A stretch of 64,000 nucleotides of DNA from a virus, in the IMG/VR virus record IMGVR_UViG_3300003629_000001; one strand, given 5' to 3'. The position numbers and the translations under genes are program-made. This document shows, piece by piece, positions 15,185-38,274 of the stretch (within the stretch, counting starts at the first letter, position 1; the number at the start of each line of letters is the position of its first letter). Below the pieces are notes generated by a model. That model did not search any database, had not been told where the DNA came from, and worked only from the letters and a program-made list of their open reading frames with translations.

Positions 15185-16085
15185 ACAAGAACTCGGTACG
15201 ATTCGCGGCCCCTCGCAACGCATTCGGGAGATTATCACGCACACGGCGCTGGCTGGTCGGGGCGACCCCTTCCACAGCGACGTATATCTCTCCGTCACGC
15301 CCGGTCAGGTGGACACGGTTGTTGCCAGCGACGGTAACACTCTGTTGACCTACTGTACGTTCACCGACGACGCGCTGTCGGAGATTGACGTAACTGAAGA
15401 CGACGCGGACTCGGCACAGGCAATCGTCAACGTGGCGGATTTCCTGAACTACCTCGATTTCGCGTCTGACGGCGGTGAAGTGGAACTCGCCTTCCGGGGC
15501 GAACCCGACAGTAAACTCGCGTCCGTGCTGGAAGTGACCGGGGCGCTGAACACCCGCGTCATGCTCCCGGCCAGCGAGTCGATTCTGGACGACGTACCGG
15601 TCAACGCCATGTTCGACCGGTTTGACGACGAGAACAATTTCCAAGGCAAGAGCGGGGCGTTGGAAACGAACATCGAAACCGACGTGGAACAGATTCAGCG
15701 GCTAATCGAAATCGTCAACTACGACTCCGAGACAGAGTTCTTCCCGATTACGGTCGAAGAGGTAGATTCGGCTACTGTTGAAGGGGAGAATGTCGAAGCG
15801 GAAGTAGAAGGTGAAGGTGAAGAGTTCGACGGGAGTGGCGAGTACGAGTTCGCGCTGGACATTGGCCGTGACACCGGTCGGAACGCTGTGTGGGGTGAAA
15901 TGAGCGCCACGTCAGTTACGTCCGACTCCGAGGTTCACAACAACTACCACCAAGGATTCGAGCCTGTCTTCGACACGCTCGGCGGCGACGTTCGACTACA
16001 GACCGCTTCCGGGGGCGCTCCCCTTGCTGTGGTTCAGGAACGTGACGGAGTAACCCTTCGCCACGTTATCGCCAACGTGTCGTAG
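15177..16085 (+). CDS. pcn: PCNA-like DNA sliding clamp
   Basis: two-domain pattern; 'VYLSVTPGQVDTVVASDGNTLL...VNVADFLNYL' and C-terminal 'PLAV...LRHVIA'; the genome encodes both RFC subunits and PolB. Confidence 0.65.
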   Translation: MSEQELGTIRGPSQRIREIITHTALAGRGDPFHSDVYLSVTPGQVDTVVASDGNTLLTYCTFTDDALSEIDVTEDDADSAQAIVNVADFLNYLDFASDGGEVELAFRGEPDSKLASVLEVTGALNTRVMLPASESILDDVPVNAMFDRFDDENNFQGKSGALETNIETDVEQIQRLIEIVNYDSETEFFPITVEEVDSATVEGENVEAEVEGEGEEFDGSGEYEFALDIGRDTGRNAVWGEMSATSVTSDSEVHNNYHQGFEPVFDTLGGDVRLQTASGGAPLAVVQERDGVTLRHVIANVS

Positions 16086-16157: not shown

Positions 16158-17357
16158 ATGGACAAAGCAACTAACGCGCTCTTCGGAACGTTCCCGAGAG
16201 CGGTCGGTGTAACGCAAGATTTCGGGGGGCTACGACAGTTCGTTGTTCACTCCGCCGGAGAGTTCGACGTGTTCACCGACGCCGTAAACGGTTCGAGAAA
16301 TGCCTACGCGTCCGTGTCATGGCGTCCAATCGGGGGTAACATCAAACTGGACAAAGTGACGCTTGATTTTGACACGCCAGCGAAACCGGACTGGCCTATG
16401 TTCGAGGGCGAGAAGCCCCCGGACGACGAGATTGTGGCGCGTATGCGGAGTGACGACCGAATAGCCAACGACGTGCTGGGAGAGGTGTTTCAGGACGCCA
16501 GCGAGTTGGCCCAACGTGCGATAGAAGACGAGGTTCCCCTGATAGGGGTATTCTCGGGAATGGGTATGCACGTTCACCTACTGTACGAAGAGACGAACGA
16601 AGACCTGAAAAAGAAACTCGGCACGACCGCCCGGAAGTACGTGGGCGACCTGAACCTCGGGACGGCTGACCCGAAAGTCGGGCTGAACGGCGACCAGAAG
16701 AAAATCGTCCGTATCCCGAACATCGAACGAATCGAAATCACCAACGGCGGTGCGAACGTGCGGCCATGCTCGGTGTTTACGATTCCGCTGACGCGGAAAG
16801 AGTTAGCGGACGGTATCTCCCCGAGTGAAGCGCTCGAAATGGCGCGGACGGAGCGAGATATAGACCCGGACATAGGTGAAGACGAGCGCCCGGAAATGGA
16901 AATCCACGACCACTACGTTACGGATTTCTCGGAAGAACAGCAGGCGGAACAGCAGGAAGTGGGCGACTCCGTACTTGGTGACGGTGACGACGACACCCTG
17001 CTTGAGTTCTTCCTACAGGAATGGCTGAAAATGCCCTGTATGTACGAGCGCGTTCAGCAACCGGAACCCGACCACCGGATTCGACAGAACTTCGCCGTGT
17101 TGATGTTCAATCTCGGGTTCTCGAAAGAGGAACTACACGAAATCATTCAGCGAATCGGCTGGGTTGATTACGACTATGAGACAAGCAAGCACCAAATCGA
17201 CCAAATCTACCGCCGGGGGTACTCCGACATGACGTGCGCGAGCATTCGTCGGAAGGGCCTCTGTACGGTGGACGAAGACGGTAAAGACCCACAAGTAGAC
17301 GACGCGGAACAGTGTCCGACGTTCGGTTGGTCGGGGGGAAAGGTGGAATGGAAATGA
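16158..17357 (+). CDS. priS: archaeo-eukaryotic primase, PriS-PriL fusion
   Basis: AEP motifs LDFD, FSGMGMHVH, IVRIP; C-terminal PriL-like Cys cluster (MPC..TC..LC..C). Confidence 0.85.
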   Translation: MDKATNALFGTFPRAVGVTQDFGGLRQFVVHSAGEFDVFTDAVNGSRNAYASVSWRPIGGNIKLDKVTLDFDTPAKPDWPMFEGEKPPDDEIVARMRSDDRIANDVLGEVFQDASELAQRAIEDEVPLIGVFSGMGMHVHLLYEETNEDLKKKLGTTARKYVGDLNLGTADPKVGLNGDQKKIVRIPNIERIEITNGGANVRPCSVFTIPLTRKELADGISPSEALEMARTERDIDPDIGEDERPEMEIHDHYVTDFSEEQQAEQQEVGDSVLGDGDDDTLLEFFLQEWLKMPCMYERVQQPEPDHRIRQNFAVLMFNLGFSKEELHEIIQRIGWVDYDYETSKHQIDQIYRRGYSDMTCASIRRKGLCTVDEDGKDPQVDDAEQCPTFGWSGGKVEWK

Positions 17358-17713: not shown

Positions 17714-18697
17714 ATGACTGTTTCAGACGCGATTTGGGTAGAGAAGTACCGCCCCTCGAACCTTGACCAGATAGTCGGCAATGAGGATATTGTCGCCCGC
17801 ATGAAGGATTTCAGTTCCGACGCTGAAATGCCGAATATCATGCTTGCTGGCCCACAGGGAACCGGGAAGACCGCCATGACTACCGCACTCGCCAAAGAGA
17901 TTTACGGTGACGACTGGCGGAGCAATATGCTGTCGCTGAACGCCAGTGACGAGCGTGGTATCGACACGGTTCGTGACCGAATCAAGTCGTTCGCTCGCAC
18001 TGACACCGTTGGGGGCTACGATTTCAAAATCGTGTTCCTTGACGAAGTTGACAGCACCACGAAAGACGCCCAGTCAGCAATGCGGCGGGTCATGGAAGAC
18101 TACAGCGACAAGACGCGGTTCATCCTGTCCTGTAACTACCCCAACAAGATTATCGCCCCGATTCAGTCACGGTGTGCCATGTATCGCATGGACAGACTCG
18201 GGGACGACGGCATTCGTCAGGTCGTTGCGAACGTAATCGCACAGGAAGGTATTGAGGCGTCTGACGAAGCCATAGACGCACTCGTTCAGGAAGCGGGCGG
18301 TGACGCCCGGAAGGCAATCAACACGCTTCAGTCGTGCGTGTTGGACGGAGAACTCACTGCTGAAGGCGTACAGTCGATTGCCGGAGCGGTCGGGTACGAC
18401 GAGGTTCGCGCAATCCTCGAAGACGCGATTGCTGGCAATCTGGACGACGCTATGCGGACGCTGGACGTGGACGTACTGAAGGCGGGTGTCTCGGAACAGA
18501 AGTTCATCGACACCGCTCTTCGCGTCGTCAAGACGCTGGATATGCCCGCTGACGCCCGTGCGAAGTGTATCGACAAGATAGCCGAGTGCGACTGGCGAGT
18601 CATGCAAGGAGCGAACCCGCACGTCCAACTTCACTCCCTGCTGTCCGACGTACATATCGCGTACCACCTGTCGCTTCCAAACTACAGCGAGGAATAA
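17714..18697 (+). CDS. rfcS: replication factor C small subunit
   Basis: WVEKYRP, GPQGTGKT, LNASDERGID, LDEVD, SRC, GDARKAIN. Confidence 0.95.
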   Translation: MTVSDAIWVEKYRPSNLDQIVGNEDIVARMKDFSSDAEMPNIMLAGPQGTGKTAMTTALAKEIYGDDWRSNMLSLNASDERGIDTVRDRIKSFARTDTVGGYDFKIVFLDEVDSTTKDAQSAMRRVMEDYSDKTRFILSCNYPNKIIAPIQSRCAMYRMDRLGDDGIRQVVANVIAQEGIEASDEAIDALVQEAGGDARKAINTLQSCVLDGELTAEGVQSIAGAVGYDEVRAILEDAIAGNLDDAMRTLDVDVLKAGVSEQKFIDTALRVVKTLDMPADARAKCIDKIAECDWRVMQGANPHVQLHSLLSDVHIAYHLSLPNYSEE

Positions 18698-22378: not shown

Positions 22379-25303
22379 ATGAGTATGACACTAATCCGCG
22401 TTACCGACCTGATATACCGCGACTCCGACGAACACGGAGTGCTGGTAATCGTATCTGGTCGGGCGCGAAACGAGAACCCCGACGAACAGGACAAGCGGGT
22501 CGCGTGCCACATTACGGGTACGACTCCCTACGCCTTCGTCCCCGACCACGACAACGTGGAACTGGATATAGGCGGTCACGTAGACCTAACGAACGAGATA
22601 CCCGACGAAGACTGGGTGACGCACGTCGAACCCGGTTATCAGGGCTACGACGGCGTGCCGCTCCGACGTGTAGAGGTAGCCGAACCCGGCAACGTCAACG
22701 ACCTGAAAGAACACTTCGACGTTGTGTATGAGGCTGACGTTCCCTACGTTCGCCGCTCGTCAATCGACTACGGACTCTCTGGTTACATCCGTGTCCCCAG
22801 CGAGAAAGTGAGCGAGGTTGGCGGGAGTGAGATTCGGGAGTCGGACGCCGTGACGGTAGACGTGGACGAACTCGAAACCGAAATCGACAGCGGAGAACTC
22901 GAAGAGCAAATCGAACCCCGAGTTCTCATGGCTGACATTGAGGTGATTCCGCCGGGCGAAGGGGGGTCGTTCGAGACGTTCACCGAGAAGGCCGAGAAGG
23001 CGGTCACGGCGATTACGACCTACGACACCTACGCCGAGGAATATATCGCGTTCGTGCTTGACCCCGAAGACGTGGTGGAAGGCCACCGCGTCAAACAGCA
23101 CCTCGCTGACCATTGGGACGACGACGAAATCGGCCACGGTGCGAACTACGAGAAGTACGTCGGTCAGGCTGACATTAGGCTTATCAAGAGTACGACAGAG
23201 AAAGATATGCTCTTGTCGTTCATTGACGAGGTGGAAGAATACCGTCCAGACCTTTTGAGCGGCTGGAATTGGGTAGATTTCGACCACGAATACCTACTCA
23301 ATCGGTTCCGCAATCACTTCGACGGTATCAATGAGCATAGACTGTCTGACATAGGTACTGTCAGCGGCTTCAAGACCAGCGAGAAAATCGACGGCCTCCC
23401 CGGCTTCGACATGATGGACGCGTTCTGTGAGAAAATGACGTTCTCACAGTGGCGCTCGAAGAGCCTTGACTACGTGTCCAAGGAAGAGTTGAACACGGGG
23501 AAGGTGGCGGACGTGTCTATCGGGGAAGCCTACCAGAACGACCGCAATCGCTTCCTCGCGTACAACATAATCGACACGCAACTGCTGGTCGGCATGGACG
23601 AGAAGCACGGGATTCATGAGTTCTTCTACGAACTCGCTGACCTGTCGTCCATCCAGATTTACGACACGTTCTCGGAAATGCGTCTCGTTGACGGCTTCCT
23701 CATGGCCCACCGAGACGACGACGAGATACTTCCCACCCAGTCCAAGAAGGACTTGGAAAGTATTCCCGGTGGGCTGGTTCTCTCCCCGAGTGACGGCGTG
23801 GAAGAGTGGGTCGCGGTGCTTGACCTGAAGAGCCTGTACCCGTCCATCTTCATTACGCTGAACGTTTCGGAAGAGACGCTGACGAAGAACCCCGAGTACG
23901 CCGACTTGGTGTGTCCCGATATGCCAGCCAGCGAAGACGACGTTGGTGGCAAAATCGAAGACCACCACATCAAGTGGGACGTGGAAGAGGGCGCTGTCGG
24001 TATGCGTACTGACGAAGTGGGTGTAGGCGAAGGCGTTCTCCCGAAGTACCTCGCTCTGCTGTTCGAGGAACGTGCTGATAAGAAGGAGATTCGGAACCAG
24101 TACGAACACGGCGACCCGCGCTACACGGTTTGGGACAACAAGCAGAACGCGGTGAAGGTTATCATGAACTCGTTCTACGGAGTGTCACAAAACAAATACT
24201 ACCGCCTGTCTACGCCCATTCAGGGGAGTCAGGGTATCGGTAGTACGATTACCGCTGGCGGACGGTACACTCTGTGGCGAGGGGCCGAAATCGCGGAGAA
24301 GATGGGCTATACTGTCAAATATGGAGATACTGACAGTATTATGATAAGTCTTGCTGACGCCGACGAAGACGTGACCGCACGGGAAGTAGTCGAACGTGGC
24401 AAGGAAGTGGAAGAAGAAATCAACGCGGCTATGGACGACGTAGCCGACGAGTTCGGAGTCCCCGAGGAACACCCGTTCCTGAAGGACAAAGACCTACACG
24501 GGACTGACCGCCACTGTCTTCACTGGGAGTTCGAGAAACTGTATCGCCGCTTCCTACAGACCGGCAAGAAAAAGCGTTATGCTGGAAACAAAGCGTGGGA
24601 AGAGGGTGAGTGGCTTATCGACCCCGACGCCGTTGACCCCGATTTCCCGAAGCCGGACATTACCGGACTCGAAGCCAATCGGGCCGACGTACCGCCCATT
24701 ACCGCCGAGACGCAACGTCGGGTAATCAAAATGGTACTCGCCGGTGCGGAGTTCGAGGAAGTGAGCGACTACCTCTCCGGTATCGTTCAGACGGTGAAGC
24801 ACAACGAGAAGGAACTGTCGGAACTCGGGACGCCGGGCGTAATCAACAAACCGCTCGAAGAGTACCCGAACCGTCCGACGAAGCGGGCGTGTCTCTACAG
24901 CAACGACCACCTCGGGTACTCGTTCCGCGAGGGCGACGACCCGTGGATATACAAGATTCAGGACACTCCGGCCATGAAGCCCGCGACTGACGTGATAGCC
25001 CTCGAATGGTCGGACGAGGAACTACCCGACGGATACGGACTGGATATTGAGGGTATCATCGAAAAGAAGATTCAAGACCCAATCGACCCCGTGGTTCCGT
25101 GGTCGTTCGAGGAACTTCGGTCGGGCCGTCAGGTCGAAGCAATCGACTTGGGTGGCGGCGGCGATTCAAGCGACAATCCGTTCGCTTCCGCTTCCACCAG
25201 TAACGACGACGCTGATACCGATACTGACGACACCGAGGAAGAGTCCGAAGAGGAAGAAGAGAGCGACGACGAGGAAGCCACGAACAACCCCTTAGAATGG
25301 TAG
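22379..25303 (+). CDS. polB: family B DNA polymerase
   Basis: Exo motifs DIE, GWN..FD, YN..D; polymerase motifs DLKSLYPS, K..MNSFYG, YGDTDS, KKRYAG; no intein seen. Confidence 0.97.
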   Translation: MSMTLIRVTDLIYRDSDEHGVLVIVSGRARNENPDEQDKRVACHITGTTPYAFVPDHDNVELDIGGHVDLTNEIPDEDWVTHVEPGYQGYDGVPLRRVEVAEPGNVNDLKEHFDVVYEADVPYVRRSSIDYGLSGYIRVPSEKVSEVGGSEIRESDAVTVDVDELETEIDSGELEEQIEPRVLMADIEVIPPGEGGSFETFTEKAEKAVTAITTYDTYAEEYIAFVLDPEDVVEGHRVKQHLADHWDDDEIGHGANYEKYVGQADIRLIKSTTEKDMLLSFIDEVEEYRPDLLSGWNWVDFDHEYLLNRFRNHFDGINEHRLSDIGTVSGFKTSEKIDGLPGFDMMDAFCEKMTFSQWRSKSLDYVSKEELNTGKVADVSIGEAYQNDRNRFLAYNIIDTQLLVGMDEKHGIHEFFYELADLSSIQIYDTFSEMRLVDGFLMAHRDDDEILPTQSKKDLESIPGGLVLSPSDGVEEWVAVLDLKSLYPSIFITLNVSEETLTKNPEYADLVCPDMPASEDDVGGKIEDHHIKWDVEEGAVGMRTDEVGVGEGVLPKYLALLFEERADKKEIRNQYEHGDPRYTVWDNKQNAVKVIMNSFYGVSQNKYYRLSTPIQGSQGIGSTITAGGRYTLWRGAEIAEKMGYTVKYGDTDSIMISLADADEDVTAREVVERGKEVEEEINAAMDDVADEFGVPEEHPFLKDKDLHGTDRHCLHWEFEKLYRRFLQTGKKKRYAGNKAWEEGEWLIDPDAVDPDFPKPDITGLEANRADVPPITAETQRRVIKMVLAGAEFEEVSDYLSGIVQTVKHNEKELSELGTPGVINKPLEEYPNRPTKRACLYSNDHLGYSFREGDDPWIYKIQDTPAMKPATDVIALEWSDEELPDGYGLDIEGIIEKKIQDPIDPVVPWSFEELRSGRQVEAIDLGGGGDSSDNPFASASTSNDDADTDTDDTEEESEEEEESDDEEATNNPLEW

Positions 25304-25497
25304 AATTTCAAGAAAAAGCCGAAGCAATGGTCGGCAAAGTCGGAGAGGGAGAACCGCCCGGTAGTGACGAGACTTGCACGCTGTACGTCAAAGGCTGGTG
25401 TGGCGGTGGCAAAATCATGGTCACGACCAGTGGTACGAAGTACGCGTGGGAAATGGACGCTGAAGACCTTCGGAACGTCAGAGAGCCAAAACTATGA
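25297..25497 (+). CDS. hypothetical protein
   Basis: overlaps the polB stop and the next start. Confidence 0.5.
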   Translation: MVEFQEKAEAMVGKVGEGEPPGSDETCTLYVKGWCGGGKIMVTTSGTKYAWEMDAEDLRNVREPKL

Positions 25498-25787
25498 GCG
25501 ACGACAAGAACATTCTCGAACAGGCGAACGACACGGTTGCACAGCGGGCTGAAGAGTATGGCCCACCGGACGAGAACTTCCAGAAAGCCGCTGACCTGTG
25601 GTCAGCCTATCTCGGTGTGCCTATCTCGAAGTACGACTACGCTCAAATGATGTTGCTCGCCAAGGTTGCACGGACGAAAACCGGCGACCCCGGAGAAGAC
25701 GAAGAACTGGACAAGGTGGGGTACGCGTTCACTGGCGACCTTGTTCGGCGGAGCATGATGGAAGACGGGGTGTGGAATGACGAGTAA
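25494..25787 (+). CDS. DUF6378-like (all-alpha nucleotide hydrolase-related) protein
   Basis: 'R..EYG....NF..AA.LWSAYL...M...K.AR....D..GY'. Confidence 0.7.
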   Translation: MSDDKNILEQANDTVAQRAEEYGPPDENFQKAADLWSAYLGVPISKYDYAQMMLLAKVARTKTGDPGEDEELDKVGYAFTGDLVRRSMMEDGVWNDE

Positions 25788-26343
25788 GGTTGCTGTCGAT
25801 ATGGACAGCACTCTCGCCGCAACGTGGGAAATGGCCTTCGAGTTGCTGGAAGGCCCCGACCATGACAAGTCCTACGACGACTTAGCATATTGGGACTGGG
25901 GAGTTGACGAATACGGACACCCCCGGTTCCTGAACGCTCTGTGGGGCGCGTGGACGATTCGAGGGGCCGACATACCCCCGATGGAAAGTGGCCTCTCGAA
26001 CGTCATTACGCGTCTGAACGAGGAACATGAGGTACACGTTGTTACCGCCCACCCGAATCGTCTCGGCCTTGACGAAGCCAAAGAAGAGTGGTTGGACGCG
26101 CAAGAGATTCCCTACGACAACTTCGTCTCACTCCCACCTCGGTTTAGCAAGGGGAAGTTCGAGCAATATCGGTGGTACATAGACGACAACCCCGGATTCG
26201 TAGACGAAGTGCCGGAACACGCTACGCTGTACTTGAGGAATCAGCGCTACAATAGGCATATCGACACAGACTCGTATGTTAGCGTGGAACGCGTAAGAAC
26301 TGTAGCCGAGGGCGTGAATAGGATTCTTAATGACACTCAATGA
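25777..26343 (+). CDS. HAD 5'(3')-deoxyribonucleotidase
   Basis: DMDSTL, VTA, K..WL, YIDD, YN motifs. Confidence 0.8.
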   Translation: MTSKVAVDMDSTLAATWEMAFELLEGPDHDKSYDDLAYWDWGVDEYGHPRFLNALWGAWTIRGADIPPMESGLSNVITRLNEEHEVHVVTAHPNRLGLDEAKEEWLDAQEIPYDNFVSLPPRFSKGKFEQYRWYIDDNPGFVDEVPEHATLYLRNQRYNRHIDTDSYVSVERVRTVAEGVNRILNDTQ

Positions 26344-26461
26344 GTGTACGTGTGAGAATCCAGAGATAGAAGAGCGAGAAATGCTGTCCAGTGCGATTGA
26401 AAAGATAATCAAGTGCGTGTCGTGCGGCGCGTCGAAAATCGAATGGAAACAAGTCCCATGA
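26330..26461 (+). CDS. 43-aa Zn-finger microprotein
   Basis: MTLNECTC...CVSCG; its stop overlaps the tmk ATG. Confidence 0.45.
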   Translation: MTLNECTCENPEIEEREMLSSAIEKIIKCVSCGASKIEWKQVP

Positions 26462-27066
26462 CAGATTCAAACGGAACCTTCGTCACACTCGAAGGTATCG
26501 ACGGTAGCGGGAAGACCAGTGCGGCAAAAGTGATTCAGGAAGAGTACAAGGCAACGGTTCAGACGCAAGAGCCGAGCGACCTGTGGACTGGCAAGCAGGT
26601 CAGGCGGGCTATCAGTAACGACGAAGCCGACGTACACCCACTCACGACGTTCTTCCTGTTCATGGCGGATAGGAACCACCACATCAACGAACGTATTCAG
26701 GACGCACTTGACGACGATATGCTGGTGGTCAGTGACCGGTATTCCGACAGCACGTTGGCGTATCAGCCGGTCGCCCTTGAAGACCACCTCGAAGACGCTC
26801 CGACGTTTATGCGCGACGTTATGGCGGAATGGAACCTCGAACCTGACCTGACTATCTATCTGGACGTATCCGTTGATACGGCTATCGAGCGTTCTGTTGG
26901 TGACGAGGAATACGAGAACCGCGAGTTTCTTGAGGGTGTCAAGGCCAACTACGACGAGATTCGTGACGAGTTCGACCACCGGTACGTCACACTGAACGCC
27001 GAGAAACCGATTGACCACGTTCAGAAAGAAGTGCTACAGATAGTCGAAGCCTACTACGATAACTAA
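26458..27066 (+). CDS. tmk: thymidylate kinase
   Basis: EGIDGSGKTS, QEP, 'FMADR', 'SDRY..ST.AYQ', PDLTIYLD. Confidence 0.93.
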   Translation: MTDSNGTFVTLEGIDGSGKTSAAKVIQEEYKATVQTQEPSDLWTGKQVRRAISNDEADVHPLTTFFLFMADRNHHINERIQDALDDDMLVVSDRYSDSTLAYQPVALEDHLEDAPTFMRDVMAEWNLEPDLTIYLDVSVDTAIERSVGDEEYENREFLEGVKANYDEIRDEFDHRYVTLNAEKPIDHVQKEVLQIVEAYYDN

Positions 27067-27068
27067 CC

Positions 27069-27383
27069 ATGCCTGAACCACAGAGAATTGCTGTCGATTT
27101 CGACAAGACGCTCACTGACCCGGACGGCGGGACGTACTTCACAGACGAACCGACGCTCCCGAACAACAACATGATAATGTGGGTCAACGAGCGTTACAAG
27201 GAAGGTCACACTATCATTATCCATACCGCTCGCCCGTGGTCGGAAGCCATGAAGACAGTCGGGAAACTGACCGAGTGGGGCGTCCGCTGGCACGGGATTC
27301 GGATGGATAAAGGGGCCGCTGACGTGTACGTTGACGACAAAGCGCTACAGCCTGAAGAAGCCCGGAGTGATAATCATGTCTGA
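27069..27383 (+). CDS. small HAD-family phosphatase
   Basis: DFDKTL, HTAR, K..ADVYVDDKA. Confidence 0.75.
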   Translation: MPEPQRIAVDFDKTLTDPDGGTYFTDEPTLPNNNMIMWVNERYKEGHTIIIHTARPWSEAMKTVGKLTEWGVRWHGIRMDKGAADVYVDDKALQPEEARSDNHV

Positions 27384-27579
27384 ATGTCCAAACTGTAAGT
27401 CTGAACAGATTCGAGAGCGAGGGGCTAATCTCCTTCGTAACGTCAAGCGCCGCGAGCGGGGAGAGAAATTAGACCCGTTCGTGTGTGACGCCTGTGAGTG
27501 GTCGGGAACCGAGGAAATGCTGGTCATGGACGAAGACGACGAAGTTCAGGTTGATACACTGAACCCGATGGAATACTAA
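27376..27579 (+). CDS. Zn-ribbon protein ending NPMEY
   Basis: CPNC...CDAC, acidic linker, C-terminal motif. Confidence 0.6.
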   Translation: MSECPNCKSEQIRERGANLLRNVKRRERGEKLDPFVCDACEWSGTEEMLVMDEDDEVQVDTLNPMEY

Positions 27580-28644
27580 TGGATAGGTCAAGCGACGGCG
27601 ACCCGAACGGAAATCCTCGCATTACAGGCGGGAGTCATCCGAAGTGCGAGGAATGCGGGTCGAAAATAGTTCCACACTTCACGTCGTTCGGTTTCTGGTA
27701 TCACTGTAAAAACTGTGGTCACAATGGCGGCGACGGTTCAGTCGAACAGGTGGCCGAGTTATGAGTCACCGTCAGCACCCCAGTTGGATTGTTCGTCACA
27801 CACTCTTCGTCGCGTGTACGATTATCGTGACGTTCCTGCTACTGGGTTTCGCAATCATACACTTCGCATGAAAGAGAAAATGGAAGCGTACCTCGACCCG
27901 TTCGACGGTGACGGCATACTTCACAATAGGGATAATATGGACGAAGACGACGAAACAGAGTACGAATGTAGCGAGTGCGGGGCGGATTGGGAAGGAGAAT
28001 CGTGCTTCGGGTACGTCAACCCGGTTTGTAGCGAATGCGGAACCGTAGCGCCACAGGCGAAGGTAGAGAAATGATAGAACCGATTTACCAGAACTATCAG
28101 GTCGAACACAACAACGAGGAAGAGGGAATGGCAATGCAAATGTACCAAGACGAAACTGTTCTTGGCGGGTTTCGGATAGTCAAATGAGAGCCAAAGTCCG
28201 GTGTGGCGCTCCGAAAGCGCGTGGTCATGAAGGAGTATGTGACCGTCTCGCCGCTACTCCGTACTGTCCCGAGCATATGTTCTACGCCGACGAGGGTGGA
28301 TTGTTCAAGGTCGTTCTCGAAGACGACCGGGTGCTGGTCGTTCGCGCCCGAAGACTCGGTGACGTGTGCGATTTCATCAAACCCGGAGTAGAGATAGAGA
28401 GGGTAATCTAATGCCAGCCGACCCCAGCAACATCAAAGAACGACTTGTAATCAGCGACGACTATCAGGACGATAAAGTGTGGATTGAGTTCTACACCAAT
28501 ACTTCAGTAGCGATTGGCCGTGGCGAGGAAGGGCCAAATCAAGACCGTGTGTGGTTGGACGGGAAAGAGAAGCATGGCATATTTGAGGCGCTGTCTGACC
28601 ACCTCGGAGAGGTAGAAGAGATAACTGTCGAAATAACGAAATGA
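27579..28644 (+). other. cluster of small coupled ORFs, several with CxxC Zn fingers (27579-27764, ~27937-28074, 28184-28411, 28411-28644)
   Basis: overlapping start/stop codons and CxxC pairs. Confidence 0.5.
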
Positions 28645-28803
28645 CCGTCGAACCTGTTTGGGTGGAAAAGCATGGTGAGCGGTTTCATCCTCGCATTGGT
28701 GGTGGTTGTAGACAGAAAACACGAAGATTGGTGCTTCGGGGATTTCAAGTTCAAAGATGAACCCACCCAGCGGCTTTTGTTTGTCTGATAGGGATAATAC
28801 TGT

Positions 28804-29187
28804 ATGGACTTTCCAAACGAAGACGAACCTGACGGCGACCGCTTTCTCCCACACCACTATCTACATGGGGCTTGGGCGCTCTTGCTGATAGCCCTGATTC
28901 ACGACGCGACATTCGTTTTGGTTCCGATATTCCTGTCGCTCTTCGGCTGGTATCACGTATGGTTCCACTACCACGCGTTCGGGGCCAGCCTGACGCTGAT
29001 AGGCTTGAGCGCCGCGCTGGGTGGGGCAATCATGAGTCCCGCACTTTCACCCACAATGAAGTTTTTCGCTACTGTGGCCTTCCTGTGGGCGCTTGACGAC
29101 GCCTACGAACACGCGACCGGAGTATGGACGCCATTGGACTGGCTCTGGAACAACCACCTTCGGAAGTACGTCAAACGGCTGGATTAA
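28804..29187 (+). CDS. small integral membrane protein
   Basis: 3-4 hydrophobic segments; HHYLHG and DD..EH motifs. Confidence 0.6.
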   Translation: MDFPNEDEPDGDRFLPHHYLHGAWALLLIALIHDATFVLVPIFLSLFGWYHVWFHYHAFGASLTLIGLSAALGGAIMSPALSPTMKFFATVAFLWALDDAYEHATGVWTPLDWLWNNHLRKYVKRLD

Positions 29188-29243
29188 TCCCCTTCAAGAA
29201 GTTTTATAATCCTATAGACTGAAGCGTAGGTAGAGGGATAGAA

Positions 29244-30641
29244 ATGCCCAAGCAAACGATAGAGGGTGAGTCAACGACCGCGACGGTCATGACTGACCAA
29301 TACGACGACAATTGTGGTGAGCAAATTCAGACGATTGCTGACCACGAAGCCTTCGAGAATCCGATAGCCATTATGCCGGACTGTCACTACGGAAGTGGCG
29401 CTGTCATTGGCTTTACCATGTCTATCGGAGAGCGTGTCGTCCCGAACACGGTGGGAGTTGACATTGGCTGTGGCATGACCGCACGCCACCTTGGCGACGA
29501 CCTATTCGCTGACGCTCCCGAGTATATCGGAATGCCGGAGATAGACGAACTCATTCGGAGCAACATTCCGTTCGGGAGAGAGGTGTACGACTACGAGGAA
29601 CAGAACTACCACATTGTAGACGATTTCCCGTGGGACGAATGTCAGGACACCTTCGAGAAGTTCGTAGAGGCTGTTGACTGGCTTGACCAGTCCGACGTAG
29701 ACGAGTTCATGGGGTACGGAAAAGCATACTTCATGGACGTGTGCCAGCGGGTACACTACGACCAGAGTCGGGCTATCAACAGTCTCGGGACGCTTGGTGG
29801 CGGGAATCACTTCGTAGAGATTGCCGAGTCTGAAAAGAACGGTGACTACTGGGTTGTCGTCCACTCGGGGAGTCGGGGTATCGGCCTCTCAATCGCCCAG
29901 CACTGGCAAGATAAGGCGACCCAGTTCACGACCGCTCGGAAGAACATCGAAGACGTTCCCGACGACCTTCGGCCCTACCTCAAGGAGAACTGGAAGCCGG
30001 ACGCTGACGCGATTCGCTCGGATTTCGAGGGCGAAGAGATTCAGCGTATGTTCGACCGTATTAGCGGTGCAATTCAGGAATACGGCCCGAACGCTGACAA
30101 TCGCAACAACGACCTTGACTGGCTGGAAGGCGACGAAGCACTCGGCTACTGTATCGACATGATTTTTGCCCAACGCTACGCGAGCGAGTCACGGCGGATT
30201 ATGGTCGATACCGTTGCTGACCTGATTGGAAACGCTACTGAAGTCGAGTACGTGGAATCCACGCACAATTATATCGACTTTCAGGACGGCATGATTCGCA
30301 AGGGCGCGACGAAGGCCAACGAGGGCGAGCGTCTGATTATCCCGTTCAACATGAGAGACGGTACTATCGTTTGTCGTGGGAAGGGCAACGACGACTGGAA
30401 TATGTCGGCCCCACACGGCGCTGGACGCCGTATGAGTCGAACGCGTGCGTTTTCGGAACTGGACGTAGACGAGTTCCACGACACCATGAGCGACGTGTTC
30501 AGCACTTCGGTCAACGAAGAGACGCTGGACGAAGCCCCCGCCGCCTACAAGGACACCGCTGTCATTGAGTCGGTAATCGAAGAGACAGCGGAAATCGAAG
30601 ACCGCTGGACTCCGGTCATGAACCTCAAGGCCGAAGAGTGA
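29244..30641 (+). CDS. rtcB: RtcB RNA 3'-phosphate/5'-OH ligase
   Basis: MPDCH, GVDIGCG, GGGNHFVE, HSGSRG, HN, RKGA, HGAGR, DEAP.AYK. Confidence 0.95.
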   Translation: MPKQTIEGESTTATVMTDQYDDNCGEQIQTIADHEAFENPIAIMPDCHYGSGAVIGFTMSIGERVVPNTVGVDIGCGMTARHLGDDLFADAPEYIGMPEIDELIRSNIPFGREVYDYEEQNYHIVDDFPWDECQDTFEKFVEAVDWLDQSDVDEFMGYGKAYFMDVCQRVHYDQSRAINSLGTLGGGNHFVEIAESEKNGDYWVVVHSGSRGIGLSIAQHWQDKATQFTTARKNIEDVPDDLRPYLKENWKPDADAIRSDFEGEEIQRMFDRISGAIQEYGPNADNRNNDLDWLEGDEALGYCIDMIFAQRYASESRRIMVDTVADLIGNATEVEYVESTHNYIDFQDGMIRKGATKANEGERLIIPFNMRDGTIVCRGKGNDDWNMSAPHGAGRRMSRTRAFSELDVDEFHDTMSDVFSTSVNEETLDEAPAAYKDTAVIESVIEETAEIEDRWTPVMNLKAEE

Positions 30642-30774
30642 CGGGGTTAATCCTCGTCATGCCGGGTGGCGGGGAACAGAGGATTCCCGACGCGGATGAA
30701 CTAATCGAACAACTTCGAGACGGAAACGGACACCACGTCACTGACGACGGTGCGTGGGTGCGGGCAACAGCAAA

Positions 30775-31086
30775 ATGACTGAACTACGAGACTTACAACA
30801 CGAAGCGTGGATGATAGCCGAAGAGAGTGGTTTCCATGAAGGCGACGAAGCCGGGGAAGACGCTCGGAGTCGGGCGAAGATACTCGCTCTGATTCACTCC
30901 GAAATCTCCGAAGCACTCGAAGCGGACAGGGAAGGCGACGACGAGAACTACCGGGAAGAACTTGCTGATACGGTTATCAGGATTCTTGACCACGCCGAGA
31001 CGGAAGGTATCGACCTGACCGAAGAGATAGAAGCAAAGTTCGAGGTGAACCGCGACCGGGAGTTCAAGCACGGGAAGCAATACTAA
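30775..31086 (+). CDS. mazG: MazG-like nucleotide pyrophosphohydrolase
   Basis: LIHSEISEALEA...EELAD..IR..D. Confidence 0.8.
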   Translation: MTELRDLQHEAWMIAEESGFHEGDEAGEDARSRAKILALIHSEISEALEADREGDDENYREELADTVIRILDHAETEGIDLTEEIEAKFEVNRDREFKHGKQY

Positions 31087-32189
31087 TGGACGAACTCTCA
31101 ATCACGGAACTGGACGACAAGGAAGGCGTCGTCTACGTTCTCGGTATCGCTCACAAAGCCCCCGAGTCCGTTCGGAAGTGGTTCTACGGCGACGAGTTCC
31201 GAAATGCCTTCCTCAAGCGATTCGACCATGCTGAAATGCTTCGTGTTCCGGGCGCGGTTGGAACAGTCGAAGTGACTGAAACGTCGAAGCAAGAACTCGA
31301 AGAGTTGTTAGACCTATGAGCGTTCGTCCGAACTACGGTCAGCGACGGATTCACGTCACGCCCGAAGTGATAGAAGCGTGGCTGGTCAACGAGAACCGGG
31401 TGACGGCTAACTTACCGGACGACGCCCGTTTCGTTCGGATGTACGCTCGTGACCGTGGTGGGTACTACCTCGTCTTCGAGAGTACCGAGTGGGACGAACT
31501 CGCTGAAGGCGAGAATATCCCGAAGGAGAGCGTCACGGTCGAACGAGCGAATACGAGAGTCACAATTCAAAAATGACTGATACGGATAATCTGACGACAG
31601 TTCCGTGTGGCTGTGGCGATTTCAGTATAGAGGTGTCGAATACCTCTGTCGTCAACAAGTTCGACGTGGTGTGTCCCGAGTGCGACAACCACTTTGGGTG
31701 GCGAGAGAAATCGGGGAAATACAACTTCCTCGAAGAACTGTCCGCCCTCGAACACCGTCAGTGGATTCACTGGACGAAAGCGCTGGCGAAGCGCGAAGAC
31801 CTTCCTGACGGACTCGTAGAGCGCTGGGAAGAGAACTGGATTCCCTACGGGGAACTCGAAGACGACGTGAAAGAGCAAGACCGCGAGTGGGCGCGTAAAG
31901 CCCTCAAAATCATGAAAGGTAATCACGAATGAGAGGTTTCGGTGACGCTATTCAGTTGGCACAGAAAGAAGCGGAACGGCGTTTCCCCGAGGGGGAGTAC
32001 ACCCTTCAAACGCTACAGTGGTGCGACGGCGACTACCGAATCACTGTCCGAAACGGGTTTAGCATGACCGAGGAAGAGAACTCACTACAGAAAGAAATCG
32101 TCGTGACGCCGCACCAAGCGAAGGTGCAACTTCGAGAGACTACCCAGTCGGAAGAGTATAGCGTCCACGACGAAGAGGTGCTACAATGA
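31086..32189 (+). other. four small coupled hypothetical ORFs (31086-31319, 31316-31576, 31573-31932, 31929-32189)
   Basis: ATGA overlaps and acidic composition. Confidence 0.55.
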
Positions 32190-33436
32190 GCGAAGAGTCG
32201 TGGGTAGAGAAGTACAGACCCGAGGTGTGGGGTGACATTCAGGGGAACAATAGTGACCTTGACGACCTGAAAGACTGGTGTCGTAATTTCACTCCCGGCG
32301 ATACGCCGCAATTGTTAGTCGGGACGCAAGGCACTGGGAAGACCAGCACAGCGAACGTAATCGCCAACAAGATGGATTGGCCGATGAATCAGACCAACGC
32401 CAGTGACAAGCGCTCTTCGGAAGATATAGCGCGACTGGCGGCGTCTATCTACACCACGCCACCGGACGCGGAGTTCCAACTGGTGCTGATTGACGAGATA
32501 GACAGTCAGTCGTCTCGCACTAACAAGCGTCCGTTGTACGACGCGCTGGACTCTCCGAATAACCCTGTTATCATTACGGCGAACGACGAGTACGATATTC
32601 CACAGGGTATCAAGAGTCGCTGTAAGATTCGGGAGTTTAAACTGTCGAAGGCGTCGAAGGCGGCTAAACTGAAAGACATAGCCGAAGCCGAGGGCATTCG
32701 AGACGAAATGTCCGACGCTGACCTTGAAGACCTATCCGAGCGGGCTGACCTTCGCTCCGCGATTCAGGATATGCAAACGTGGGCGAAGCAGGATATTCCG
32801 CCGGGTCAGGACGAACGTGACGTGGAAATCGGTGAGTTCGAGGTTATGGATAATATCATGCGAGGGACGAAGGAAGCGGGTCAGGTCAGCCCGCCCGATT
32901 TGGTCATGTGGCTTGACGAGAACCTTCGCAAAGAGTTCCGGGGCGTCGAAGCGCTCACCGCCTACGACACGCTCGCCAACGCCGACAAGTGGCTCGCACG
33001 CGCCCAGCAGGAAGACTATCGGTTCTGGAAGTACGCTGGGGAATTGGCCGAACAGACGGCGACACAGCGCGTGACAGAGCCTTACGACGGCTGGATGGAC
33101 AAGGACTTTCCCGAGTGGTTCCGGCACAAGCAACCCAACGCGCACGGGGAGAAGCCCGAAGCGCGGCTGTACCGGAAACTTAAGGACTGGGAAGGCGGTT
33201 CTTTCCAGTTCGCCGGGGACTACACCCACTTCCTGAACGTGGTGCTACCCCTACTCGAAGACCTACCGCTGGACGAGCGCCGTCAAATGGTGTTAGAATT
33301 GAGCCTTGACGACGGCGAAATGGAAGCGCTGGGTGTCAGTCCGAAGCGCTATAAGAAGTGGGCACAGTCGGACGTACCAGCCGAGCGCCAGCAGAACGAA
33401 GCGGAACTACAGACGACGGACGTGCTGGACTACTAA
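32186..33436 (+). CDS. rfcL: replication factor C large subunit
   Basis: WVEKYRP, GTQGTGKT, NASD.R, IDEID, AND.Y, DLRSAI.D, W.DEN. Confidence 0.9.
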   Translation: MSEESWVEKYRPEVWGDIQGNNSDLDDLKDWCRNFTPGDTPQLLVGTQGTGKTSTANVIANKMDWPMNQTNASDKRSSEDIARLAASIYTTPPDAEFQLVLIDEIDSQSSRTNKRPLYDALDSPNNPVIITANDEYDIPQGIKSRCKIREFKLSKASKAAKLKDIAEAEGIRDEMSDADLEDLSERADLRSAIQDMQTWAKQDIPPGQDERDVEIGEFEVMDNIMRGTKEAGQVSPPDLVMWLDENLRKEFRGVEALTAYDTLANADKWLARAQQEDYRFWKYAGELAEQTATQRVTEPYDGWMDKDFPEWFRHKQPNAHGEKPEARLYRKLKDWEGGSFQFAGDYTHFLNVVLPLLEDLPLDERRQMVLELSLDDGEMEALGVSPKRYKKWAQSDVPAERQQNEAELQTTDVLDY

Positions 33437-33438
33437 CA

Positions 33439-33687
33439 ATGCAAGGAATCAGCGGAACACTCCGATTCGAGTCGCACGAAGAGTTAGAAGAATACTTCGA
33501 CTGGGCCGAAGGCTTCCTCATGACGAAGCAGGACGTGGAACAGGGTCTACAGGGCGTACCAGACGACGAAGTGCCGTATCCGCTCGAACTCGAAATCGAC
33601 TTGGCGAAGCAAACTGTGAAGAATCTCGCCAAGAAGAACCCCGAGAAGACAGTCGAACTACAGAACAAGTGGCTGGAATCGGAGTAA
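33439..33687 (+). CDS. hypothetical protein (paralog of the next ORF)
   Basis: aligns by eye with 33718..33981. Confidence 0.55.
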   Translation: MQGISGTLRFESHEELEEYFDWAEGFLMTKQDVEQGLQGVPDDEVPYPLELEIDLAKQTVKNLAKKNPEKTVELQNKWLESE

Positions 33688-33717
33688 GACTTATACCAGT
33701 TCATCCCCTATCAAGGA

Positions 33718-33981
33718 ATGAAGACAATGTGGAAAGGCAAACTCAAAATTGAAGACGAGGAGAGCATGACCGAGTTCTTCGTTAACACCTCGGACGCGCT
33801 CATTACGCAAGATGAAAAGAACCGGATTGCCGAGGTAGTCCAAGAGGCTGACACCGTGTCGTGGCCTATGGAAATCGTGTTCGAGATTCAGGAAGATACG
33901 TGGGAAGCGTTCTCGAACAACCACCCGGACGAAGCCAAGGTAATCGAAAACCACCTCGAACAGCAACCCACCCAAGCATGA
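33718..33981 (+). CDS. hypothetical protein
   Basis: preceded by the conserved promoter motif. Confidence 0.6.
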   Translation: MKTMWKGKLKIEDEESMTEFFVNTSDALITQDEKNRIAEVVQEADTVSWPMEIVFEIQEDTWEAFSNNHPDEAKVIENHLEQQPTQA

Positions 33982-34364
33982 GCGGAGAAATGCAAGACGC
34001 TCACGGGTACTACTGTAAGACGTGCGGGGACGAGATAGCAGATATAATCGAACTCGTCCAGCACGGGTGCGAGGAACCGCTGGCCGCGCCGTCGCTCTCG
34101 AAGGGTGAGCGGGCGACCCTCATGTATATTGAGAGTCGCGTTGTGGAACACCGGGGCGAGTTAGACCACGAGCAAATGAACTACGACGACCAACAGAACA
34201 TCAAGGTCTTTCAGGCGGCTGGACTCCTTGAGATAGACGAGTTCACCGTGAAGGTGTTCTCTGACGCGGCGTGGAATCTCACCCGCGACTGTCGGCAAAT
34301 GCGTGCTGACAGTTGGATTGAGGGCGACACGGACATAGGCGACGTGCCGGGTGACTTGAAGTGA
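33978..34364 (+). CDS. hypothetical protein (Zn finger plus wHTH-like region)
   Basis: CKTC..HGC, then 'LSKGERATLMYI...AAGLLE'. Confidence 0.5.
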   Translation: MSGEMQDAHGYYCKTCGDEIADIIELVQHGCEEPLAAPSLSKGERATLMYIESRVVEHRGELDHEQMNYDDQQNIKVFQAAGLLEIDEFTVKVFSDAAWNLTRDCRQMRADSWIEGDTDIGDVPGDLK

Positions 34365-34677
34365 GCGACGAAGTTCGTCTTCGCTTTGCTGGGTCGTTCG
34401 GTGACGGGTTAGAGTTCGTGGAAGCCGAAGACGGTGACGGTAACAGTATCGACGTGGGGACGTGGGAGCGCGACGGCGACTACCACATTCTGACGTTCGA
34501 CCCCGAGGATTCGGTATAGCGCTATGTGGTTTATTTTCGGGATTGTGACGCAAGCGGGGCCAGTGACCCTATATTCACAGATAAAGTTTTTTATCCTGCT
34601 GAATGGGGTCAAACAGCCCACCACCGCCTTCGGGCGAATAGCAAAACTCGCCGGTTTATATCCGCAAATCTGATACC

Positions 34678-35421
34678 ATGAAACAGAAACTCAAATCCAA
34701 AATCAGTAGCCTACTTGAGAGGTATGGTTACAAACCAATCGAAGTAATTCCTCATTGTTGCGAATGCGAGAATGAGGCTGACCACGCCACACAGCAAGCA
34801 CCCGGTCGCGGGCTTGACTACTGGTGCGAAGACCACTGTCCCGTCTGTAATCCGAGGGTGAACATTGACTGACCAACCTGACCCCAACGACCGAGACGCG
34901 TTCCTTGAGTGGATGGTCGGACGACAGTTCCGATACGACGTTGCCACGACGCAAATCCACTTCGAGGGAATCGAACCGATTGTCGAAGAGAGCGAAGTAG
35001 AAACCGAGTCCGGTAACGAACTCACCGAGAGCGTCAAAGCCGACTCCGTGTACCTACTCGCTGAAGAACTCACCACGACCGACGAGACAGTCGAAGGCGA
35101 AGTGACCGAAACCACTGTCCCGACTGTTGACCCAGCCGACGGAACCGGCGAGGAACACAAGATTCCCTTCGACACTGTGCGGGTCGCGTGGCTACAAGGA
35201 AGGATAGAAGAGATATGAACGGCTCAAGAGATAATCAAGGTGGGCGTACTAATCTCCGTGGAGAAACACCGACTCAAGCATTCGGAACAGCAGTGGTAGA
35301 AGCTTTTGCTCCACTTCTCCGAGACGCGCTTCAAGGACGTGAGATTAACGAGAAGAAAGCACGAGAACGGTTGGAACACCAACTGGAAGGCCGAGGCTTC
35401 GAGGTTGAAAAGAAAGAATGA
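34678..35421 (+). other. small hypothetical ORFs (34678-34872, 34865-35218, 35215-35421)
   Basis: coupled ORFs. Confidence 0.5.
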
Positions 35422-35726
35422 CCGTCGTTAGTATCCGCTGTCAAGAGTGCGACGAGGTGAAGCGTGAAGAGAAAATGGCTGGTATTCAGGTGTGCAAGGA
35501 GTGTTCGGGCGGCGACACCCCGGACTCACCCGAGGAAGACGACGACGCTAACTCCGAAGACGGGTCAGTTAGCAATGGAGGTGGCGTCAGCGAGGAAGAA
35601 ATCACCGAGGAATCTGACAGTACCCCTACTGACGACGCTGACACCGACGAAACGACGGACAGCGCCGAAAGAGACAAGAAGCCGCTTGAAGAATCATTTA
35701 ACGAGCAAGACCCGCTCGAATGGTAA
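35418..35726 (+). CDS. Zn-ribbon protein with acidic linker ending DPLEW
   Basis: CQEC...CKEC; the C-terminal PLEW matches the PolB end. Confidence 0.65.
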   Translation: MTVVSIRCQECDEVKREEKMAGIQVCKECSGGDTPDSPEEDDDANSEDGSVSNGGGVSEEEITEESDSTPTDDADTDETTDSAERDKKPLEESFNEQDPLEW

Positions 35727-35733
35727 TCCAACA

Positions 35734-36003
35734 ATGCCAACCATGATAGTCGAATTTGAAGACGTGAGTGCGACAATGGAAGGAACCGTAATCAAGGTCG
35801 AACGGAACACGGGTGGCCGCGAAGGCTACTTCTACTTCGGCCCCGAGTACATGGAAGAGTTCGACGGCGGGTCGTTTGCACTCTCGGCTGGGCGAGAACT
35901 CCCAGCGGAAATCGGCCTGCTACCGGACGGTGAGCGGGAAGCCCTTCGGGAGAATCTTTTTCCGAAGGACGACGACGAAGACTCCGGTGAGTCTGAAGAA
36001 TGA
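35734..36003 (+). CDS. hypothetical protein
   Basis: acidic ORF with ATG at 35734. Confidence 0.55.
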   Translation: MPTMIVEFEDVSATMEGTVIKVERNTGGREGYFYFGPEYMEEFDGGSFALSAGRELPAEIGLLPDGEREALRENLFPKDDDEDSGESEE

Positions 36004-36004
36004 C

Positions 36005-36307
36005 ATGGTAAAACCTGTACTCAACGTTCATACTGAATGGGTGGAGAACAAGTACGGGAAGCACCTCGAATTTCACTGTAGCAATTGCGGGAACATCGAA
36101 CGCATGGTTCGTCGGAACGCGACGAAATTCTGTTCGTCGTGTGACCGTCTCATGCAAGCCGAGAACTACAGTTGTTCGGGGGAAGCGCCTGACCCACAGA
36201 ATCCAAAGCGATTCCTTCGCAAGACAGCGAAGCGGCGTGGACTCCCCTACGATTACTACTACCCCGAGGAAGACGAACCGACGACAGACGACCCTTTGGA
36301 CTTTTAG
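36005..36307 (+). CDS. Zn-ribbon protein ending DDPLDF
   Basis: CSNC...CSSC, basic patch, C-terminal motif. Confidence 0.6.
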   Translation: MVKPVLNVHTEWVENKYGKHLEFHCSNCGNIERMVRRNATKFCSSCDRLMQAENYSCSGEAPDPQNPKRFLRKTAKRRGLPYDYYYPEEDEPTTDDPLDF

Positions 36308-37553: not shown

Positions 37554-37933
37554 GTCTACCAGTCGGGTTGGGTGGACTCGTTGATACTGACGAACTCAAG
37601 CCCCCACAGGGTCGCAATACGCAAGGCCCGACTGGTTCGAGAGAGTTCACGACGCTCATGAACCAAATCAACGGAGAAGGGAAGAGCGAGCGCGTGGACT
37701 TGAGCATAGGTGGCTACGTCACAATATCCCTATCACCGTACAACTGGACGCTTTACGATTGCGAGTATCAGCACGACCCGACTATTGAAGAGAATATCGC
37801 TCGCGCCGAGTTCGTTGACGCCGGTGGTCACTCCGAAGCGGTTCTTCTAATTGACATAGAGAGCGGGGAAGTGGTGTCCGTACAGGTAAATCGTCGGGGC
37901 GAACACATGGTCGGTACATATAGTGGCCCATGA
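37550..37933 (+). CDS. IGGYV-motif protein 1
   Basis: DLSIGGYVTISL. Confidence 0.6.
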   Translation: MSLPVGLGGLVDTDELKPPQGRNTQGPTGSREFTTLMNQINGEGKSERVDLSIGGYVTISLSPYNWTLYDCEYQHDPTIEENIARAEFVDAGGHSEAVLLIDIESGEVVSVQVNRRGEHMVGTYSGP

Positions 37934-38274
37934 ACGAGAACCAAATCATCATACTGTGGGTCTTCGGTGTTGCTGTGATATACGCACTCGACTGGATTCC
38001 GGGGATAGTTTATCTCGCCGCTGTCGCTCCCCCAATATTATATCACGCCCGAACCACGTACCCTCGAAAGACGAGCGTGGAAGAAATGGAACACGCGGAC
38101 TCACACTCGGAGATTGAAAATGACGAGGTGACGGTCGATAGCGAGTACACGGAGCGAATCGAACTGGAAATCGGTGGCTACGTCGAACTCGAATGCTGGA
38201 AGGAAGTGCCGTTCAGCGAAGCCAGCGAGGAAGAGAAAGACCAGAAGCCACCTCTTGAGAAGTTCTACGAATGA
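37930..38274 (+). CDS. IGGYV-motif protein 2 (N-terminal membrane anchor)
   Basis: hydrophobic N-terminus; ELEIGGYVELE. Confidence 0.6.
   Translation: MNENQIIILWVFGVAVIYALDWIPGIVYLAAVAPPILYHARTTYPRKTSVEEMEHADSHSEIENDEVTVDSEYTERIELEIGGYVELECWKEVPFSEASEEEKDQKPPLEKFYE

Follow-up and report, generated by a model that had tools for sequence, protein, structure and literature searches.

We describe a haloarchaeal virus that appears to run a sliding-clamp system of its own, in which a short peptide at the extreme C-terminus of several proteins recruits them to a virus-encoded clamp with a PCNA fold. The virus is IMG/VR record IMGVR_UViG_3300003629_000001 (110,711 nt), and the window analyzed here comprises its final 63,944 nt, to which all positions refer unless another locus is named. 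We assign this reading a probability of roughly three in four. It draws on the tail motif, its enrichment, its conservation and the fold of the clamp, to which a modelled docking site is added. In the proposed mechanism, a highly divergent PCNA-fold clamp (15177-16085) would be loaded by a viral RFC (small subunit, RFC-S, 17714-18697; large subunit, RFC-L, 32186-33436), and client proteins would be recruited by a C-terminal peptide consisting of a small residue or Pro/Val, then Leu, Met or Ile, then an acidic or small residue and finally an aromatic residue with a free carboxylate. A flexible, often acidic linker would keep this peptide clear of the protein body. The tail would run along the C-terminal strand of the clamp, with its Leu and terminal aromatic residue in the pocket under the interdomain connector loop, the classical site of the PCNA-interacting peptide (PIP) box. 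Clients in the window virus would be the family B DNA polymerase (PolB), RFC-L and three small zinc-ribbon proteins, the latter probably working at or next to DNA in the tethered state; relatives would use the same tail to recruit DNA-acting enzymes, namely DpdA4/DpdA, a D12 methylase, an HNH nuclease and a GNAT acetyltransferase. An original prediction made from the sequence of the window had proposed that the shared tail is a non-canonical PIP box for the viral clamp, and conservation, clamp fold, above-chance frequency and a complex model all support this interpretation.

The tail is found on five open reading frames (ORFs), all located on the plus strand in the replication module between 22.4 and 36.3 kb, and their positions and final residues are exactly those originally predicted. 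PolB (22379-25303; Pfam DNA_pol_B and exo1) ends in NNPLEW, with the NPLEW tail encoded at 25286-25300, and RFC-L (32186-33436; Pfam AAA, weak Rad17) ends in TDVLDY (tail DVLDY, 33419-33433). Zinc-ribbon protein 1 (67 residues, 27376-27579, CPNC...CDAC) ends in LNPMEY (tail NPMEY, 27562-27576), zinc-ribbon protein 2 (102 residues, 35418-35726, N-terminal CxxC...CxxC) in QDPLEW (tail DPLEW, within a C-terminal segment at about 35664-35723), and zinc-ribbon protein 3 (100 residues, 36005-36307, weak Pfam Zn_ribbon_8) in DDPLDF (tail DPLDF, 36290-36304). The assignment of the three small proteins to the zinc-ribbon type holds as well, two CxxC pairs being present in each. The register is x-[PV]-[LM]-[ED]-[WFY]-stop and always occupies the final five residues, following linkers that are acidic, variable in length and poorly conserved. 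In case of PolB this linker measures about 39 residues, and homology to HCTV-1 PolB ends at residue 935 of 974. The RFC-S protein (plus strand; phrog_168 clamp loader, E = 1e-68) carries no tail and terminates in PNYSEE. Cellular RFC is likewise equipped with a PIP box on its large and not on its small subunit (PMC7776575).

A six-frame scan of the complete genome (ORFs of at least 30 residues) recovered [PV][LM][EDS][WFY]-stop on exactly these five ORFs, and a looser pattern added just two minus-strand ORFs of 30-35 residues. Across 34,682 positions of called genes the motif occurs four times, two of which are the C-termini of PolB and RFC-L. Based on this frequency, 0.017 matches would be expected at ~150 C-termini compared with 5 observed (Poisson P ~1e-11); even if all 1,177 six-frame ORFs of at least 30 residues are counted as genes, the expectation is 0.15 (P = 6e-7). 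The motif frequency therefore lies well above chance, with 0.02-0.15 matches expected and P between 1e-11 and 6e-7. Since the motif had been defined after viewing the sequences, it was tested on other genomes, which confirmed that it is real, far above chance and conserved.

Judged from its protein sequences, the window is DNA of a salt-lake haloarchaeal virus related to the Druskaviridae, the family of the haloarchaeal siphoviruses HCTV-1, HCTV-16, HCTV-5 and HVTV-1, with whose PolB proteins the polymerase of the window virus shares 47-49% identity. The whole HCTV-1 genome contains 6 tail matches where 0.23 would be expected (P = 2e-7). They fall on gp94, an HNH nuclease (gp86), PolB, a GNAT protein (gp84), RFC-L and gp64, all of them annotated genes of the replication/DNA-modification block. 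No strict match was found in the remaining 60 kb of HCTV-1, where the looser pattern yielded one unannotated ORF of 37 residues. HCTV-5 and HVTV-1 have 7 tail proteins each, a D12-class N6-adenine DNA methyltransferase being added to the HCTV-1 set. In all, the clients of the three cultured viruses are PolB, RFC-L, an HNH nuclease, a GNAT protein, the D12 methylase, DpdA4 and a protein of ~150 residues. HCTV-1 gp64 and its HVTV-1 counterpart HVTV1_69 belong to DUF6610, named DpdA4 by Hutinet and colleagues and predicted to be the transglycosylase behind preQ1, which replaces 30% of G in HVTV-1 DNA (PMC10516641, PMC6884629).

Individual C-termini of these enzymes could be listed as well. DpdA4 (L001:32943-34106 in HCTV-1, L003:33296-34456 in HVTV-1) ends in DVLDF or NVLEF, and a canonical DpdA in a distant locus (L020:6253-7140) ends in SAMEW. 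The D12-class methyltransferase of HCTV-5 (L002:24673-25527) and HVTV-1 (L003:23236-24087) ends in DVLDF, the GNAT acetyltransferase adjoining PolB in EDPLDF, and the small HNH nuclease in DPLDY or DVLDY.

Orthologs of the window proteins retain the tail. In the ERZ27230152 contig, a metagenomic relative with a clamp 71% identical to that of the window virus, it is kept on 5/5 orthologs: DPLAW on PolB, DPIEW, DPLEW and DPLDW on zinc ribbons 1, 2 and 3, respectively, and DILEW on RFC-L. Further PolB orthologs end in GVLSW or GALSW. The annotated RFC-L proteins of HCTV-1, HCTV-5 and HVTV-1 share 47-51% identity with that of the window virus and end in SVLDF, while other RFC-L orthologs end in SALDW or SAMEW. 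Searching IMG/VR with the single RFC-L protein returned no relatives; an RFC-L alignment used as query returned ten loci, comprising the three cultured viruses, two new relatives (L007 and L009) and five distant matches at 25-29% identity. Each virus was found to use one tail flavor on all of its clients at once: [PV]L in the window virus, A-[LIVM]-x-W in the distant locus L020 (on PolB, a zinc ribbon, a 243-residue protein, the canonical DpdA and RFC-L) and x-x-[STD]-W in the distant locus L009. This is the pattern expected from a shared, co-evolving receptor. The accessory clients have turned over. Orthologs of HCTV-1 gp94, GNAT, DpdA4 and the methylase are absent from the window virus and orthologs of the three zinc-ribbon proteins are absent from the HCTV/HVTV loci, leaving PolB and RFC-L as the only clients common to both, and conservation of clients across the family can thus be tested for these two only. 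Taken over Druskaviridae PolB and RFC-L, the ERZ27230152 relative and the small-protein families, the expected conservation of the tails in orthologs was borne out.

The proposed receptor, a 302-residue protein encoded on the plus strand at 15177-16085, is not recognizable by sequence profiles. No Pfam family matched it at E up to 0.01, it falls in phrog_25687 ('unknown function'), and the PF00705 profile found no match in the whole genome whereas control genomes score. Using 38 of 43 homologs found, an AlphaFold2 (AF2) model was obtained with a mean predicted local distance difference test (pLDDT) score of 89 and a predicted template modelling (pTM) score of 0.86. It displays the PCNA-clamp architecture, that is two domains per protomer with a repeated beta-alpha-beta-beta-beta pattern, joined by a connector loop. 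In a Foldseek search the top PDB matches were all PCNA, with more than 40 entries at probability 1.0, template modelling (TM) scores by target of 0.73-0.80 and 10-13% identity; H. volcanii PCNA and the enlarged clamp of African swine fever virus (ASFV) are among them. The best BFVD match, an entry labelled 'Uncharacterized protein', is the homolog from HVTV-1. By its modelled fold, ORF 15177-16085 is a clamp, as had been proposed. It is 38% identical to HCTV-1 gp96, its gene occurs in all related loci that extend to the corresponding position, and it is encoded together with an RFC-type loader. We found no description of such a clamp or docking motif in Druskaviridae in the literature, supplementary tables aside; the clamp of these viruses is previously unrecognised. 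At 302 residues the window clamp is longer than its relatives (277-290 residues), and the additional ~17 residues lie in a low-confidence loop (pLDDT 54-61; clamp residues ~200-220, window ~15775-15840).

We modelled the clamp in complex with a tail by combining the clamp alignment with residues 63-102 of the ORF 35418-35726 family and including three controls. The tail was placed in the partner-binding pocket with a score of 0.78, compared with 0.00 for the best of the 3 controls, a result that supports binding. In a reference set this mark is reached by 58/80 solved complexes and 2/110 mismatched pairs, counts that are only rough here because the alignments were our own. At least 83% of contacts agree between runs, and the pLDDT of the partner is at least 50. 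Confident contacts are made by tail residues 94-100 (F-N-E-Q-D-P-L) and 102 (W) and, on the clamp, by residues 53-57, 141-158 (the connector loop), 188, 258-259, 280-282 and the C-terminal strand at 297-302. Two of the interface residues, P141 and P282, are invariant in the clamp family. The tail is thus predicted to dock in the partner pocket under the interdomain connector loop, along the C-terminal strand, at what we take, by comparison with known PCNA-peptide complexes, to be the PIP site.

Since the tie between tail and clamp is purely computational, the tail could instead serve another partner or process, such as a T7-style polymerase- or SSB-binding tail, a protease or chaperone tag, or a signal that directs proteins to a replication compartment. 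The T7 proteins gp2.5 and gp4 have acidic tails with a terminal aromatic residue, which the acidic linkers and final aromatic residues described here resemble, and the clients, which include a GNAT protein, an HNH nuclease and zinc ribbons, are functionally mixed. We nevertheless consider this unlikely. Both proteins that have to contact a clamp, the polymerase and the large subunit of the clamp loader, carry the tail, every client of known function acts on DNA, and the model puts exactly the conserved residues into the canonical clamp pocket with clean controls. As for a protease tag, the HbYX motif of proteasome activators has its Tyr in the penultimate position and not at the end.

A further possibility is that the tail is a degenerate PIP box which docks viral proteins on host PCNA, instead of or besides the viral clamp, the latter then having another role or its own unseen clients. 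In H. volcanii the PIP box reads QxxLxxFx and is found on PolB, PolD, RFC-B, Fen1 and RNase HII (PMC7776575; PMC2737543). Viral tails do not follow the canonical register Q-x-x-[LIM]-x-x-[FWY]-[FWYLM]: a single residue, not two, separates Leu from the aromatic position, and there is one aromatic residue only, which is always the last. Gln is mostly absent. A few tails do keep Q-x-x-L (QDPLEW, QSVLDF, QDILEW), giving the motif the look of a shortened PIP-box descendant and lending some weight to docking on host PCNA. PIP motifs are in addition degenerate, and the H. volcanii PCNA pocket is shallower and tolerates a non-aromatic last residue (PMC2737543). On the other side stands the complex model, which covers the viral clamp only and scores 0.78 against 0.00 for the best control. 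A useful contrast is provided by HSTV-2 (Hafunaviridae), where no viral-type tails, no annotated RFC and no such clamp were seen in the 42.5 of 68.5 kb examined, and where PolB (L022:19956-22607) ends in the host-type PIP sequence QSGLGAFI. Together with a complete viral RFC whose large subunit is itself tailed, this contrast makes the viral clamp the likely receptor, and we regard docking on host PCNA, in place of or besides the viral clamp, as quite improbable. The original label of the motif as virus-specific fits these observations, the tail being different from the host PIP box and HSTV-2 using the host type on PolB. In HSTV-2, a 493-residue neighbor of PolB (L022:9775-11256) also has a PIP-like end, GGLASFT. 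Finally, chance resemblance or a by-product of acidic halophile composition, which a motif defined post hoc in proteins rich in D and E might raise, can be dismissed with 5 matches against 0.02-0.15 expected, the fixed motif then recurring 6-7 times in each of three cultured genomes and on orthologs of all five proteins, and its absence from the HSTV-2 control.

Several points weigh against recruitment to the viral clamp and are reflected in the probability we assign to it. Conservation is no higher in the modelled interface than in the remainder of the clamp (mean top-residue frequency 0.65 vs 0.70). With so many PCNA-peptide structures already solved, the high score of the complex model may stem from likeness of fold instead of specific recognition. 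A preference of the tail for the viral clamp over host PCNA is deduced only from the motif difference and the contrast with HSTV-2, and the latter stands on 42.5 of 68.5 kb. Further, the distant locus L020, which carries its own tail flavor, ends before the expected position of the clamp gene.

Recruitment to a viral clamp would have a number of consequences. A conserved 'hypothetical protein' (HCTV-1 gp96, HVTV-1 gp101) gains a function as viral sliding clamp, completing a replisome of PolB, RFC and clamp, and the last four or five residues of a protein become a sequence rule by which the clamp clients of these viruses can be listed. The list for HVTV-1, HCTV-1 and HCTV-5 includes DpdA4, the predicted enzyme placing preQ1 in viral DNA, and that for HVTV-1 and HCTV-5 also a Dam-like methylase. 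The presence of the clamp tail on DpdA4/DpdA and on the methylase suggests that the replication clamp is where anti-restriction (preQ-type) DNA modification takes place, an idea that can be tested in culturable virus systems. Likewise, HSTV-2 PolB has a host-type PIP box and viruses that encode a clamp have the shortened tail, a contrast suggestive of a private clamp-peptide code by which viral and host replication traffic would be kept apart. If so, it would be a useful case for studying the co-evolution of short linear motifs and their receptors.

The three zinc-ribbon proteins have no known family and gain a concrete, testable predicted partner. Homolog families were recovered for all three, so these small ORFs are real genes, and in the family alignments a variable linker precedes a conserved tail; searches of Pfam and PHROGs returned nothing for them except the sub-threshold Zn_ribbon_8. 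The zinc ribbon 1 family comprises 31 matches with E values no higher than 0.001, and these include some long proteins with multiple matched stretches. Among the short members examined (65-132 residues), 10/14 end in W, several of them in x-[LI]-[DG]-W, and a basic stretch is conserved between the Cys pairs. Its model (pLDDT 72) is a generic ribbon with no PDB match below E = 1, the best rows being the non-significant (E above 1) ribbons of Brf1, TFIIB and TFS4. In the 8-member family of zinc ribbon 2, the N-terminal ribbon is invariant and the last 20 residues nearly so, including the tail ([DN]PL[ED]W), with an acidic linker rich in indels between the two. A second conserved element, KKPLEESF, lies eight residues before DPLEW and its Phe is part of the modelled interface; the two elements may form a two-part clamp contact or contact two protomers. 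For zinc ribbon 3, 4/4 members of the family end in DPLD[FW] (DPLDW in the L015 ortholog), and a basic patch precedes the tail. Protein-atlas look-alikes of these proteins, bacterial FYDLN_acid clusters at 0.90-0.91, share few features and resemble them at the feature level only; they were not counted as kin.

Their architecture of small domain, variable linker and polymerase-like clamp epitope is that of T4 gp33 and gp55 (PMC2988020), and we read the zinc-ribbon proteins as putative clamp-tethered small nucleic-acid-binding or regulatory factors. The coupling of replication to transcription or the competition with PolB that the original prediction had raised for them is speculation. By analogy, the trio could be the archaeal-virus counterpart of T4 gp33 and gp55 (and of Mu MuC with the beta clamp), riding a viral clamp loaded at forks or nicks and handing it to host RNA polymerase or initiation factors, such that late transcription would become replication-dependent. 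We consider this counterpart unlikely. No homology of the small proteins to gp33, gp55 or archaeal transcription factors was detected. If the idea were true, the archaeal domain would have its first example of clamp-activated transcription.

Two neighboring ORFs were rejected. A sixth candidate client at 37930-38274, singled out in the original prediction for its weaker KPPLEKFYE end, did not hold up: the tail is not conserved, the ortholog in a relative ending in TLRTRK, and the N-terminus reads by eye like a membrane helix. The GTG-started ORF 35464-36003, which overlaps ORF 35418-35726 in another frame, owes its length to an artefactual upstream GTG and was not accepted as a gene at this extent. 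The 3' part alone (from ~35730) matches a real 88-residue gene of a relative (L015:10310-10576).

The genes of the replication region are arranged in the same order as in HCTV-1, HCTV-16, HCTV-5 and HVTV-1. This order runs from RadA (minus strand) through a 325-residue protein, an AAA_24/Sak4-like ATPase, a 116-residue protein and the clamp to a 399-residue protein, RFC-S, a PD-(D/E)XK nuclease, PolB, thymidylate kinase and zinc ribbon 1, followed by RtcB, MazG, RFC-L and zinc ribbons 2 and 3. The RtcB RNA ligase and the MazG-like pyrophosphohydrolase (29244-31086) lie within the replication block as in Druskaviridae and both lack the tail. The 399-residue protein directly after the clamp gene (16158-17357; phrog_9660, no known function) ends in GWSGGKVEWK and HCTV-1 gp95 in GWSGGEAEWMS; the two share a near-terminal Trp, which is not the final residue.

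In conclusion, the tail system is most likely a variant of the PIP/clamp principle that serves a hitherto unannotated viral clamp. Like the archaeal and eukaryotic PIP box, which in Haloferax volcanii is C-terminal on PolB, PolD DP2, the RFC large subunit, Fen1 and RNase HII (PMC7776575), the tail is a short linear motif that follows a flexible linker at the very end of the protein, and it is found on the polymerase and on the large but not the small RFC subunit. The site predicted for it by the complex model, formed by an N-domain strand, the connector loop and the C-terminal strand of the clamp, corresponds to that of the PIP box, a placement that may reflect likeness to solved PCNA-peptide complexes. 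The tail differs from the PIP box in that Pro or Val often precedes Leu and in that its proposed receptor is a clamp missed by PCNA sequence profiles and only 10-13% identical to PCNAs. Among viruses, phages T4 and RB69 have similar hydrophobic-acidic C-termini on the polymerase gp43 and on gp33 and gp55 for the gp45 clamp (PMC2988020, PMC7892883), a precedent that the original prediction had described correctly (PMC2988020). In both systems the virus supplies the clamp together with its loader, the polymerase and small non-polymerase proteins (here three zinc-ribbon proteins) share one C-terminal epitope, and a divergent, dispensable linker lies ahead of this epitope. There is however no sequence relationship between them, the window virus infects an archaeon with TBP/TFB-type transcription, and its clamp loader also bears the tail. 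The ASFV clamp E301R (PDB 8i6g, 7ype) is likewise virus-encoded, enlarged (~300 residues) and divergent in sequence with a PCNA fold, but belongs to a eukaryotic virus and is unrelated in sequence to the window clamp. The closest counterparts are HCTV-1 gp96, HCTV-5 gp97 and HVTV-1 gp101 (L7TKG1), 'hypothetical protein' entries of phrog_25687, which are orthologs of the window clamp in the same neighborhood; the viruses encoding them carry the same tails, and their accessory clients are HNH, GNAT, D12 methylase, DpdA4 and a ~150-residue protein where the window virus has zinc ribbons instead.

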